This document shows, piece by piece, positions 55,573 through 60,579 of a stretch of 64,000 bases of DNA (positions within the stretch are counted from its first letter, which is position 1; each line of letters begins with the position of its first letter). The translations under genes were made by a program, and so were the position numbers. The stretch is from Escherichia coli (lineage in GTDB: Bacteria; Pseudomonadota; Gammaproteobacteria; Enterobacterales; Enterobacteriaceae), in assembly GCF_003334315.1 (NCBI RefSeq), contig NZ_QOWR01000016.1; one strand, given 5' to 3'. A model generated the notes under the pieces. It worked only from the letters and a program-made list of their open reading frames with translations. It made no database searches and had not been told where the DNA came from.

Positions 55573-56664
55573 TTACCGCACGATGACGGTAATGGTGGCT
55601 GTGCCCTGAAATTTTCCTGTTTCCAGCTCACCACCGACCAGATTAACTGGCCAGGCGCGCATATTGACGGTGCCATGCCCGGAAGGATCAACGGGAAGGA
55701 TACCGTTCTGAAAAGGAATATTTGCAACTCCGCCGCCGAGATTTTCAATACGAATACCGACATCGGGCACATTGTCTGAACTTCTTCGCCTGGCGACCAG
55801 GTTGTACTGGTCTACTACCCCAGTTGTACCGTCGATGCGCATTTGCAACGAGTTTTTAATCTTTGAAGTATCACCACAGTCATAAGTGATATCAAAGTCT
55901 ACTGGAGTAAAACCGTCTGGCATGGCATTGCGGGTGGTAAACTTCTGACCATTGATGAATCCAAAATTAACCTTAATAACATCGCCCTGATTAATTTTGC
56001 ACGACTGTGGGGCGGTGAGATTTCCCTGAATCGATAACTTGACTAAATCATGGAAGTCACCTGTAGACGGGCTTCCCATTCCATCGACCCACGCGCCTTT
56101 AATGACGGCAATATCCGTTTTCGGAATGGTCATCGAGCCGAGAAATGGCTTGGTGACATACAGGGTAAAGGTGGTGTTCGCACCAATATTAACGGGTCCA
56201 TAACGAGACGTATCACCCTGGCAAACACCCGTTTGGGTTGCAGCAGAATATACCGTGTTGTTTTTTATCTGTGTGAATCGGGTGTTAACAGAGACAACCT
56301 GGTCGGTTGTGAGTCCTGGAATGTCGTTTGCCTGTAATGTGGTTTTAATATCCAGGCTGTCATTGAGTTTGTAATATCCTGTCTGATGTCCAGTGGTGGT
56401 AAGTACGGGGCTGACCATATAGACAAGTTTAACTGCCTTACCCGCAGAGCAGGAACAGGCGTATTGCCAGTTAGTGCTACTTAGCGTTGCAGAGGTAAAC
56501 TCCCGTCCTGTCACGTTATCTGTCTGGTTCACCGTAACATCATCAACCACACTGCTGTAATTTGTCGCACCGCTAGTGCTGTCGGCTCCACACCCTCCTG
56601 AGGAGGCATAAGCGCAGGATGTGGATATCAACAAAAGACCTGTTATAAGAGGCGCTCTTTTCAT
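55573..56664 (-). CDS. yraK: Putative fimbrial adhesin/minor subunit YraK
   Basis: Track ORF trimmed to MKRAPLITGLLLISTSCAYA (signal peptide) giving 363 aa; last gene of chaperone-usher operon. Confidence 0.85.
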   Translation of the reverse strand: MKRAPLITGLLLISTSCAYASSGGCGADSTSGATNYSSVVDDVTVNQTDNVTGREFTSATLSSTNWQYACSCSAGKAVKLVYMVSPVLTTTGHQTGYYKLNDSLDIKTTLQANDIPGLTTDQVVSVNTRFTQIKNNTVYSAATQTGVCQGDTSRYGPVNIGANTTFTLYVTKPFLGSMTIPKTDIAVIKGAWVDGMGSPSTGDFHDLVKLSIQGNLTAPQSCKINQGDVIKVNFGFINGQKFTTRNAMPDGFTPVDFDITYDCGDTSKIKNSLQMRIDGTTGVVDQYNLVARRRSSDNVPDVGIRIENLGGGVANIPFQNGILPVDPSGHGTVNMRAWPVNLVGGELETGKFQGTATITVIVR

Positions 56665-56674
56665 TTTTTTATCC

Positions 56675-59191
56675 TTAATGGCACTGCGCTGTGCCTTGTA
56701 ATACAGAGGTTGTAGGTTCTGAATCCGGTGTACTGAAAGCAAACTGACATTGTTGATCTGCCTGATTTCCCCAGCGTACAGTCCAGCTTTGTGATTTACT
56801 CGATATCCCAGAGAGATATAGTATGCCGCCCTCATCGACGATACTTTGTTGCCCCGTATCATCGTTGCTGGCAAGAGCGCCAAAGGGCAACGGTTTACCG
56901 TTGCGATCGCTGACTGTAACAAGTACGCGATAACCGATATTGGCGTTGAAACGCGCCGCTACCATTGCACCTCTGTTGGGCACCACAAACTGTGTTGTTT
57001 GTTCAAGATCGACGTTATCGGGCAGCTGCGTAGTATCTACCGAGAGACGGTTTTCCTGATAAGTTGTGAGATAAGGAACCACTGCATAGCCAAAAGGATC
57101 GGTAGCAATCCCCGGATAGTTTTGTATCCTCACGCCAGATGCTCCGTTAGCATCGATAAGCGCAAAAGCGTTGCCCAGATATTGCGAGAGCGTCACGCCA
57201 TGAGGATGGATAACCACGCCGCCGGTAACGCCGTAATTGTATTGGCTGCTGTCATTACCGTAGCTGTATCCGGCACTGAAGGTGCCATAAGGTGAACGGT
57301 AACTGGCGTTCAGGCTACTGTTATGGTTGTTATCGTCATCCAGACTTTGTTCCAGGCTATAGCTCAGGCGACCATCATCCAGCAGTGAGCCATCAAGACG
57401 CATTTCATGTTGGGTTGGGCGATCTTTCTGGCTGGTCATCTGATAGGAAACCCGGCTACGCGGTAACCAGCGTTCTAACGGAATACTGAGATTCAAAGAG
57501 AGTGCGCGGTCATTATTTTGATCAGTGTAGCGGCTGTATTGATAATTCAGGCTGTAACCAACTCCCCATTGCTGGCCGGAAACCCCAACAGAGATATTCC
57601 TGTTTTTATCGTTATTGCCCCAATAGTCTTGCTGCGAACCGGAGGCATACAGACTTACCCCATCAAATATTGTCTGGCTGATGTTGAATTGAATTTCACT
57701 TTTTTGGCGACTGTTATAGTCCCAATTGCGGGTATTGGCTTCATTAAAACTAAAATAGCCATCGTTGGTATAGCGATAGTAGCTGACAGCGATATTGGTG
57801 TTGGTTTCCGGGATATCTTTGATGTACTGCGTACGCCATTGATAGCCATGAAAAGAGTGCTGGTTATCGAATTGGGTGTCAGCTCTGTTGATATCCATCG
57901 ACAACGCGCCCAGTGCGCCAAGTGTGCCGCCGATACCGATCCCCAGCGCATAATAATCTTCAGAACCGAGCAGGCCGCCATACAGCGTAAAAGTATTATT
58001 CAAACCATATATTGCCGTGGCTTCAGCAAATTCGGGTTCCTTGCTATCACTGTTTGCATCAGCGCGATAGCGTCCAGCGGTCGCGCTATACTTTAGATGC
58101 CCAGGTCGCTGCATCATGGGTAATGAAGAATAAGGCTGGATAAAGCGACGTTGTGTACCGTCACTTTCTTCAATCGTGACTTCTAAATCGCCGCTGTTGG
58201 AAGAGGGGTAGAGATCGTTAATTTCAAAGGCACCCGCTGACACGTTGCTTTGATAGATCACATAACCATTTTGCCTGATAGTCACGATTGCACTACTGTT
58301 TGCGATACCGCGTACCGTTGGGGCAAATCCGCGCTGGCTGTTTGGCAACATATTATCGTCGGAAGCGAGTTGCACGCCAGTAAAGGTGTAGCTGGAAAAA
58401 ATACTGCCGCTGGTGGCGCTTTCTCCCAGAAGCAACTGAGACTTCAACGCCTTGATATCACGTTGTAAATAACTACTGATGGTATTCCAGCTTGATGTCT
58501 GATCGTTGCGTGTCCATGTGGAATAGTTGCGTAATCGCCAGGGGCCAAAATTAGCACCATTTTGCATATTCAGGTACTGTCGTTGGCTACGATTGCCCTG
58601 GCGGTAACGGTTATCAGAACCTGTAAACGAGTAGTTGGTAAACAGCGTTGGTATACCATCGTCCCAACGAGAAGGGGAGACGTAACCTCTTGCATCACGG
58701 TACAGTGCAATTTGGGGAATGCTCAAATTAAGTTGCTGATGATTGAAATCAAATTCAGCAGCTGTACCGGGAATGATTTGTTCAAGCGAGTTGATCACGC
58801 TATCGTCATCTTTTTCAGCCAGCGCCGGGATTTCATCCACCTTAATACCCAGCTCACGTAGTTGTTCTACCGTAAACTGTGGCTGCAGAAGTTGCTCTGC
58901 ATTGGCGGTAAATGTAATTTTTTTCTGTGAAACCTTCTTTTTATTCAGCCAGATATCAACCTGATAAGTTCCTGGTAGTTGTGCATATTTTTTTGAAAAA
59001 CGCGACAGATCGGTTGTTTGCATACCACTTTTTGTGGTTTCCAGCATAATGGGGTCGAAATAATACTCTTCGGCGTTAGCGGTAGTGCAAAGCATGCCGC
59101 TGCCAGTGAGCACCATCGGCAAACAACGTTTGATGATGAGCGCCAACTGTTTCGGTGTGCGTTTATGTCCCTGGTGGTGTCGTTGTGGCAT
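56675..59191 (-). CDS. yraJ: Fimbrial outer membrane usher protein YraJ
   Basis: Track ORF trimmed to MPQRHHQGHKRTPKQLALIIKRCLPMVLTG giving 838 aa; typical usher size and composition; start choice uncertain by a few codons. Confidence 0.85.
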   Translation of the reverse strand: MPQRHHQGHKRTPKQLALIIKRCLPMVLTGSGMLCTTANAEEYYFDPIMLETTKSGMQTTDLSRFSKKYAQLPGTYQVDIWLNKKKVSQKKITFTANAEQLLQPQFTVEQLRELGIKVDEIPALAEKDDDSVINSLEQIIPGTAAEFDFNHQQLNLSIPQIALYRDARGYVSPSRWDDGIPTLFTNYSFTGSDNRYRQGNRSQRQYLNMQNGANFGPWRLRNYSTWTRNDQTSSWNTISSYLQRDIKALKSQLLLGESATSGSIFSSYTFTGVQLASDDNMLPNSQRGFAPTVRGIANSSAIVTIRQNGYVIYQSNVSAGAFEINDLYPSSNSGDLEVTIEESDGTQRRFIQPYSSLPMMQRPGHLKYSATAGRYRADANSDSKEPEFAEATAIYGLNNTFTLYGGLLGSEDYYALGIGIGGTLGALGALSMDINRADTQFDNQHSFHGYQWRTQYIKDIPETNTNIAVSYYRYTNDGYFSFNEANTRNWDYNSRQKSEIQFNISQTIFDGVSLYASGSQQDYWGNNDKNRNISVGVSGQQWGVGYSLNYQYSRYTDQNNDRALSLNLSIPLERWLPRSRVSYQMTSQKDRPTQHEMRLDGSLLDDGRLSYSLEQSLDDDNNHNSSLNASYRSPYGTFSAGYSYGNDSSQYNYGVTGGVVIHPHGVTLSQYLGNAFALIDANGASGVRIQNYPGIATDPFGYAVVPYLTTYQENRLSVDTTQLPDNVDLEQTTQFVVPNRGAMVAARFNANIGYRVLVTVSDRNGKPLPFGALASNDDTGQQSIVDEGGILYLSGISSKSQSWTVRWGNQADQQCQFAFSTPDSEPTTSVLQGTAQCH

Positions 59192-59915: not shown

Positions 59916-59994
59916 AGTTATTTTTCAACCTGATACAACGAGAAAGAGGAAGGAAAAGGGCGTTATCTGACAGGTCAGATAACGCCCTAACGTA

Positions 59995-60579
59995 TTAACG
60001 GTAATCCAGCGTTACGTTAACGATAGCGTCTGCTTCCCCTGGGGTGATTTCTGATGGAACTACGGTTGATACGTAGTAAGCGATGAGGTCAACATTGACA
60101 ATACCATTGGATTCCGCCGGGATCTGATAAACCGTGTTATCATTGCCCATAGCATTCAGTGGCATAATGTTTCCGCTTTCCGCATCGTCAATACGGATAC
60201 CCACACCTGTTGCCGCTATGCCAGCAAAAGAGCCTACTTTTGCCAGATTAGGGAAGTTAGGGACGGTGCCATTATCTCGCGTTTCCAGCCATAGACGGAA
60301 AGACGCTTCAACGTTGCCGTTATCGTGCTCCCACCCAGTCATTGGGCAGTTAACTAAAGGAATAGTGAATGGAATTTTTGGGCTACGCTCGCCAATATTA
60401 CGAAACTGTTCGGCATTATAGTGACCAAGAGCAACTTCAATTTTCTTATCAGAGTCATTGATTTCACAAGCGGATTTTAAAATCTCGCCATCAAAAACTA
60501 TTTCACCATCGGTTGCAGCGGCATTACCTGCGAAAAGCGCAAGTAAGCCCGCAATAGCTGTTTTTGTAACTTTATTCAT
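59995..60579 (-). CDS. yraH: Fimbrial major subunit YraH
   Basis: 194-aa ORF MNKVTKTAIAGLLALFAGNAAA signal peptide, C-terminal beta-strand ending in Tyr-Arg; matches YraH. Confidence 0.88.
   Translation of the reverse strand: MNKVTKTAIAGLLALFAGNAAATDGEIVFDGEILKSACEINDSDKKIEVALGHYNAEQFRNIGERSPKIPFTIPLVNCPMTGWEHDNGNVEASFRLWLETRDNGTVPNFPNLAKVGSFAGIAATGVGIRIDDAESGNIMPLNAMGNDNTVYQIPAESNGIVNVDLIAYYVSTVVPSEITPGEADAIVNVTLDYR

Follow-up and report, generated by a model that had tools for sequence, protein, structure and literature searches.

A K-12-type copy of the yraHIJK chaperone-usher fimbrial operon in an Escherichia coli strain with an IS1-interrupted aga locus

The stretch of Escherichia coli DNA studied here (64,000 nucleotides (nt) of contig NZ_QOWR01000016.1, assembly GCF_003334315.1, called the window below) carries a set of chaperone-usher fimbrial genes, which we identify with high confidence as the complete, uninterrupted yraHIJK operon of E. 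coli in its K-12-type allele. A listing of the open reading frames (ORFs) across positions 53000-64000 showed that positions 55573-60579 of the minus strand are filled exactly by four co-directional frames (Table 1), with intergenic gaps of 79, 28 and 10 nt in the order from yraH to yraK. The longest ORF versions of two of these genes begin upstream of the annotated starts, at 59266 for yraJ and at 56922 for yraK, and the translations of yraH, yraI, yraJ and yraK contain one stop each, which is terminal. When positions 55400-61000 were used as a megablast query against 5,426 complete E. coli genomes, the record NZ_CP097882.1, a derivative of K-12 MG1655, matched in a single piece with 100% identity, and a direct string comparison established that all 5,601 bases are equal. 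At the corresponding coordinates, this record is annotated with yraH (WP_001045432.1), yraI (WP_000044775.1), yraJ (WP_001355538.1) and yraK (WP_000816992.1). Given the single terminal stops and the base-for-base identity to the K-12 record, the operon is free of frameshifts, truncations and insertion sequence (IS) elements.

The complete DNA identity and the position between agaI and rsmI also tell which locus this is, namely E. coli yraHIJK (b3142-b3145), known in K-12 MG1655 as the "Yra fimbriae", with the same four genes and the same two neighbors. It is the reference operon unchanged, and it is already known, since yraHIJK is one of the 12 chaperone-usher operons of K-12 (PMC8174762). A first-pass annotation, made by a model from the sequence alone, had described four co-directional, intact genes at 55573-60579 with no frameshift or IS element among them, and had stated that they do not form a new system. 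Its coordinates, gene count and view of the operon as intact and previously known were right, and the only item omitted was the minus strand. It had also named two ways in which it could be wrong, truncations or frameshifts relative to reference proteins and products without fimbrial signatures in hidden Markov model (HMM) searches; neither is present, and all four assignments passed.

The assignments of the first three products are supported by Pfam and by sequence searches of the PDB. YraH matches the Pfam family Fimbrial (PF00419) over residues 27-193 with an E-value of 8.6e-28, and its closest solved structures are FimI and FimA (E 6e-9). Its signal peptide appears to end in ...NAAA and to be followed by an alternating hydrophobic N-terminal strand, TDGEIVFDGEIL, that resembles a donor strand, so that YraH would combine the features expected of the pilin in a chaperone-usher operon, i.e., a signal peptide, a Fimbrial fold and an N-terminal donor strand, with the peptide and the strand being predictions. 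YraI has matches to PapD_N (E 5e-41) and PapD_C (E 1e-11), and its closest solved structure is FimC (E 1.4e-43). In FimC, Arg8 and Lys112 form the cleft that holds the C-terminus of the subunit, and in the alignment both residues are retained in YraI (Arg8 in TRVIY, Lys112 in RIK). YraI thus has the two Ig-like domains of a chaperone as well as the Arg and Lys for subunit binding. In YraJ, PapC_N, Usher (E 7e-216) and PapC_C together take up residues 44-822, the closest solved structure is FimD (E 3e-174), and the parts that make up an usher, namely the N- and C-terminal domains and the barrel with its plug, are all found.

For YraK, the Pfam Fimbrial match is confined to residues 211-362, and the approximately 190 N-terminal residues are without a Pfam match. 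The protein divides into a signal peptide, an N-terminal domain of about residues 21-205 and a C-terminal pilin domain at 211-362, and a PDB sequence search found similarity to LpfD (5AFO; E 1e-11) that covers both domains. An AlphaFold model of YraK, calculated from an alignment of 40 sequences, had a mean predicted local distance difference test (pLDDT) score of 83, and a Foldseek search of the PDB with this model returned LpfD as the best match (E 9e-19), followed by CupB6, CsuE, FimH, PapG, FocH and the lectin domains of F17-G, and every one of these is either a tip adhesin of two domains or the receptor-binding part of one. The whole-chain template-modeling (TM) scores were low (0.25-0.47), as is expected where the orientation between domains differs. 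Thus, as judged from sequence and model, YraK has the make-up of a two-domain adhesin, with a receptor-binding domain and a pilin domain that lacks a donor strand of its own. The first-pass designation of YraK as a putative tip adhesin gains support from the similarity to LpfD and from the match of the model to two-domain adhesins, and YraK would accordingly be placed at the tip of the fibre.

A database search with YraK returned 79 relatives. Their identity is 95-100% within E. coli, 82% for one further variant, approximately 40-53% for sequences from Citrobacter, Salmonella, E. whittamii, Kluyvera and Klebsiella, and approximately 37% for Ewingella. In the 40-sequence alignment, six cysteines are invariant, C25, C70, C72 and C148 in the N-terminal domain and C222 and C263 in the pilin domain. 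Two database entries deserve a comment. A 229-amino-acid (aa) fragment (P0012) is 100% identical to part of YraK and is called "putative prophage side tail fiber protein" by one source, which is likely a misannotation. A further sequence with 95% identity to YraK (P0004) is labeled Salmonella enterica, and here a mislabel or a recent transfer is likely.

Table 1. Features of the yra region, in window coordinates
Feature	Coordinates	Strand	Description	Basis
yraH	60579..59995	minus	major fimbrial subunit, 194 aa	ORF and Pfam
yraI	59915..59220	minus	PapD-like periplasmic chaperone, 231 aa	ORF and Pfam
yraJ	59191..56675	minus	outer-membrane usher, 838 aa from annotated start	ORF and Pfam
yraK	56664..55573	minus	two-domain adhesin (predicted), 363 aa	ORF, Pfam and model
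agaI-yraH spacer	60580-60979	minus	400 nt, operon regulatory region, 27% G+C	
TTGATA-17-TCAAAT promoter-like site	60747..60719; -35 60747..60742, -10 60724..60719	minus		published string located in window
hairpin after yraH	59988..59957	minus	14-bp stem, then U-rich tract; 7 nt past yraH stop	terminator-like scan
hairpin between rsmI and yraK	55541..55566	plus	10-bp stem; within the 42 nt that separate the convergent stop codons of rsmI (55530) and yraK (55573)	terminator-like scan
presence/absence segment	55527..61010		5,484 nt versus 99 unrelated nt in the O6:K2:H1 strain	blastn of the O6:K2:H1 locus (L002) against window

The assembly of type 1 and other chaperone-usher fimbriae is established, and the mechanism that we propose for Yra follows it. 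YraH and YraK would be exported by the Sec pathway, and YraI would cap each subunit in the periplasm via donor-strand complementation. YraJ would presumably take up the YraI-YraK complex first and then polymerize YraH beneath YraK via donor-strand exchange, and the product would be a fibre tipped by the two-domain adhesin YraK. As the operon has no adaptor subunits, YraK would join the YraH rod directly. Concerning the literature, a passage in PMC6805351 that cites Korea 2010 describes the K-12 chaperone-usher operons as poorly expressed in laboratory conditions and functional if expressed, and according to a passage of PMC12711010, which also cites Korea 2010, the yra operon contributes to bladder-cell adhesion. 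Assembly of a surface fibre that depends on chaperone and usher would be in keeping with what these two passages say (PMC6805351, PMC12711010). The main text of Wurpel 2013 does not name Yra.

Transcription of the operon would start within the AT-rich spacer between agaI and yraH, which is flagged with H-NS in one paper. Specifically, a constitutive RpoD promoter with the sequence TTGATA-17-TCAAAT was reported for the agaI>yraH spacer and flagged HNS (PMC3946193), and the published string was located in the window (Table 1). Silencing by H-NS involves AT-rich regulatory DNA to which this protein binds, with derepression in an hns mutant. Observed here are the low G+C content of the spacer (27%) and its flag in PMC3946193, and H-NS may silence yra in the strain under study. 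The first-pass annotation had called the operon normally cryptic, and this agrees with the flag as well as with the poor laboratory expression mentioned in the cited passage of PMC6805351. A further link to regulation is that yraH is up on BolA overexpression (PMC4337573).

A scan for terminator-like structures found two hairpins at the operon. The first follows the yraH stop and has a calculated RNA folding energy of -25.3 kcal/mol (z -4.6). Hairpins with a different stem sequence occupy the equivalent site after the pilin gene in three diverged operons, L004 (a Logan contig), L005 (Citrobacter) and L007 (E. whittamii), which argues that the role of this hairpin is conserved. It is likely to be an intra-operon attenuator or an mRNA-stabilizing 3′ element that favors YraH over the downstream products, and it would probably set a high ratio of the major subunit to the assembly proteins. 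The second one occupies the gap in which rsmI and yraK converge, and the corresponding gap contains a hairpin in L004 and L007, too. This structure is likely terminator-like for rsmI and probably marks the 3′ end of the yra transcript. An Rfam scan of the whole window found no RNA family within 55400-61100. Matches at gathering level elsewhere in the window (19073-19194, 25847-25930, 29716-29789, 29881-29981, 34680-34750, 36263-36377 and 36607-36778) belong to the greA leader, two tRNAs, the rimP leader, naRNA4, the S15 leader and SraG, as expected for a K-12-like region.

With respect to the distribution of the operon, 5,410 of the 5,426 complete E. coli genomes match the megablast query somewhere, but a coverage of 80% or more was reached in just 3,270. 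Among the other genomes listed, many match just 127 nt of rsmI, and approximately 40% of complete E. coli genomes are without most of the yra operon. The description of the operon as accessory-like in the first-pass annotation is in line with this figure. The yra-negative state was examined in one genome, that of an O6:K2:H1 strain, in which rsmI and agaI are 49 nt apart. The borders of the segment that is present in one state and absent in the other fall within the last codons of rsmI (55527-55530) and of agaI (60980-61010), and the C-terminus of AgaI therefore differs between the two states. It reads ...HSNFICLINT in the strain studied here (251 aa) and ...HNHFTCVIDEMCRR in the O6:K2:H1 strain (255 aa), and RsmI has 286 aa and 287 aa, respectively. 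Neither direct repeats nor yra remnants were found at the junction, and the 99-nt spacer of the O6:K2:H1 strain gave just chance 8-11-mers, for which reason sequence scars do not settle whether the difference arose by deletion or by insertion.

The neighborhood beyond agaI sets the strain apart from the MG1655 derivative. An IS1 element starts at 63548 inside agaB (GGTAATGACTCC...) and reaches the end of the window at 64000, with the remainder of the element outside it, so that just the last 63 codons of agaB are left beside agaC; the IS1-disrupted aga locus to which the first-pass annotation had referred is thus found next to the operon. Among complete E. coli genomes, the junction of IS1 and agaB was absent as one piece, and the best matches have IS1 approximately 105 bp off or differently arranged. 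Across 51400-63547 (12,148 nt), the window and the MG1655 derivative differ at ten positions, all in agaI-agaD-agaC (61445-62766), whereas the approximately 10 kb from lpoA through yraH are identical. This clustering at 61445-62766 suggests that either a short stretch was recombined or the lineage, although K-12-like, is a distinct one. While the operon itself shows no difference, the ten single-nucleotide polymorphisms in agaI-agaC and the IS1 element in agaB, which the MG1655 derivative lacks, mean that the strain resembles K-12 at yra without being the derivative with which we compared it.

Intact reading frames do not by themselves mean that an operon is useful, and it could be argued that yraHIJK is functionally decaying in this lineage, i.e., that it is silent, is turning into pseudogenes, has a compromised usher and makes no useful fibre. 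The K-12-type YraJ carries Q153 (codon at window positions 58733-58735) and S318 (codon at 58238-58240), whereas R and P are found at these sites in seven other E. coli alleles, in L004, in the Citrobacter and E. whittamii orthologs and in FimD, within the motifs RLNLS and VPxGxF. R153Q and P318S thus affect sites that are conserved in all other ushers compared. Furthermore, decay of the operon is frequent elsewhere. In O157:H7 (locus L003, 674-1407), yraK is a pseudogene that is 358 bp shorter, and in O121:H19 (locus L011, 174-1254) it is frameshifted, with yraH, yraI and yraJ being intact in both. Other strains have IS annotations under the match, with an IS3 family transposase flanked by two partial usher genes in one (H6) and an IS1 family transposase at the place expected for yraH and yraI in another (H16). 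For Shigella flexneri, yra pseudogenes have been reported (PMC6854044), and the genomes without most of the operon belong to the same picture. As side observations on O157, the agaI gene of O157:H7 has an internal stop, and features of yraK were predictive of O157 clinical outcome in a 2025 machine-learning paper.

On the other hand, 5 kb of sequence without stops or frameshifts speak against decay in the strain studied here. The ratios of nonsynonymous to synonymous nucleotide diversity (piN/piS), determined on a small sample of eight E. coli alleles (six intact ones for yraK), are 0.24 for yraH, 0.23 for yraI, 0.085 for yraJ and 0.14 for yraK, and these values indicate purifying selection on all four yra genes wherever they have been retained. 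In addition, papers that cite Korea et al. 2010 report, in the passages concerned, that the K-12 operon promotes adhesion if expressed, which argues that the K-12 usher allele is not null. We therefore regard functional decay as unlikely and continue to view the segment as a complete operon of the K-12 type.

Several points nonetheless weigh against a straightforward reading of this operon as a working fimbrial system. Expression and fibre assembly in the strain at hand are predictions, and the Yra results of Korea et al. 2010 reach us second-hand, through passages in later papers. The published promoter string is exact in only two of seven other E. coli alleles, and its role is uncertain. Q153 and S318 in YraJ are lineage-specific changes at sites conserved in the family and, to judge from the alignment, could weaken the usher. 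Finally, Yra appears to be a type of its own (see below), such that properties of Fim or Lpf fimbriae are not simply transferable to it.

A different question is whether the cluster simply copies one of the named fimbrial types, long polar fimbriae (Lpf) or type 1 fimbriae (Fim). The top matches among the NCBIfam models are LpfB, LpfC, LpfD, FimC and FimD, and the best structural match of YraK is LpfD. However, all NCBIfam equivalog models that were matched (Lpf, Fim, Stg, Bcf and others) score far under their curated cut-offs (57 versus 221 for LpfA, 195 versus 360 for LpfB, 740 versus 1271 for LpfC, 76 versus 412 for LpfD), which sets Yra apart as a separate type among the Fim/Lpf-like fimbriae. 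Yra resembles Lpf (lpfABCDE) in the chaperone-usher logic and in the order of pilin, chaperone, usher and two-domain adhesin, and no solved structure is closer to YraK than LpfD, be it by sequence or by fold, yet the two are just 18% identical in the Foldseek alignment. Unlike Lpf, Yra has no gene for a fifth subunit and lies at another chromosomal locus, and it is not a member of the Lpf type. With type 1 fimbriae (fimAICDFGH), Yra shares its closest solved chaperone and usher, FimC and FimD, including the Arg and Lys of the chaperone cleft. YraK also shares the two-domain plan of FimH, but its lectin domain is unrelated in sequence. Unlike the fim locus, the yra locus is without annotated adaptor or recombinase genes, and evidence for promoter inversion was not found; Yra therefore does not belong to type 1 either. 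As the four ORFs fill the span and leave no space for an lpfE-type fifth subunit or for adaptors of the FimF/FimG type, and as the locus is the yra position of K-12, a copy of either named type is very improbable.

The relatives of the operon outside this lineage are informative in another respect. At the same site next to rsmI, E. whittamii (L007, 4098-9068) carries a yra-type operon of four genes in the same layout, with the post-pilin hairpin included. The identity to the proteins studied here is 48% for YraH, 67% for YraI, 63% for YraJ and 47% for YraK, whereas the neighboring proteins reach 97% (RsmI) and 96% (LpoA), and the DNA identity between E. coli and E. whittamii falls sharply at the rsmI stop. 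On its other flank, the E. whittamii operon borders on garD, not agaI. This may point to a divergent cassette or, alternatively, to a conserved site with a very old allele. The operon of L004, with approximately 82% DNA identity, is likewise adjacent to rsmI, and the layout recurs in Citrobacter portucalensis (L005), there at another locus. The four-gene layout and the post-pilin hairpin are thus kept in operons with 47-88% protein identity. Since both E. whittamii and L004 carry yra-type operons next to rsmI, this site has held such operons for a long time, be it through old allelic divergence or through replacement by transfer.

A repeated motif in the agaI-yraH spacer caught our attention. 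The 8-mer ATGTTCAA/TTGAACAT occurs there in four copies (60630-60637, 60672-60679, 60863-60870 and 60893-60900), and the 64-kb window as a whole contains six. In 200,000 shuffles of the spacer, three or more copies of the ATGTTCAA 8-mer were never reached, and in 3,000 shuffles, some 8-mer family reached four copies in 88 cases. Around two copies, the match widens to 11-bp perfect inverted repeats (60629-60639 and 60861-60871) that enclose 221 bp with the promoter-like site inside, and copies of the motif also form a hairpin-like pair of 15 nt. Most E. coli alleles retain the copies, but these spacers are just 2-4% diverged, so that their retention is uninformative on function, and the regions upstream of the diverged operons L004, L005 and L007 lack the motif. 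For both reasons, we rejected the conservation of ATGTTCAA as evidence for a function. A phase switch of the pap type, which works through Dam and Lrp, was rejected as well, since it needs paired GATC sites and the 400-nt spacer contains no GATC. As a separate observation, IS1 is found inside the agaI-yraH spacer in two strains, L9 (H51) and HS30-1 (H42), where it could silence or activate the operon.

The geometry of the inverted repeats and the four-fold occurrence of the motif look switch-like, and they raise the possibility of a fimS-like invertible promoter, consisting of the 221 bp between the 11-bp repeats, that controls yra expression. A construct with the 221 bp flipped was therefore searched for in complete E. 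coli genomes at a coverage of at least 80%; it matched in 0 of 5,132 genomes, while the native orientation matched in 3,271. With no recombinase gene among the ORFs and annotations of the yra locus, and with the motif not being found upstream of the diverged yra-type operons, a fimS-type switch can be rejected and is almost certainly not how the operon is controlled.

A more speculative idea, which we consider rather doubtful but worth stating, combines the site with the motif. According to this idea, the rsmI-adjacent position is a long-lived cassette site, at which whole yra-type operons are swapped or kept as deeply divergent Escherichia alleles, and the ATGTTCAA array would bind a regulator specific to E. 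coli, by which the operon is woken in a particular host niche. The observations that bear on the site are the protein identities of 47-67% amid flanks of 96-97%, the 82% variant, and the clean absence in the O6:K2:H1 strain.

As a discovery, the segment carries little weight, because it is a textbook-listed and experimentally touched cluster of K-12 in a copy identical to the reference. What it does offer concerns the study of Yra fimbriae. The two unusual substitutions in the K-12 usher mean that K-12 is possibly not the best strain for work on Yra function. Among Shiga toxin-producing E. coli (STEC), O157:H7 and O121:H19 have lost the adhesin gene and kept the remaining operon. The value that remains lies in the ligand of YraK and in the signal that lifts the silencing, two questions that are approximately 15 years old and that the first-pass annotation had already raised, and for the first of these, the region of about residues 21-205 with its four invariant cysteines delimits a lectin domain that would be expressible for glycan-array work.

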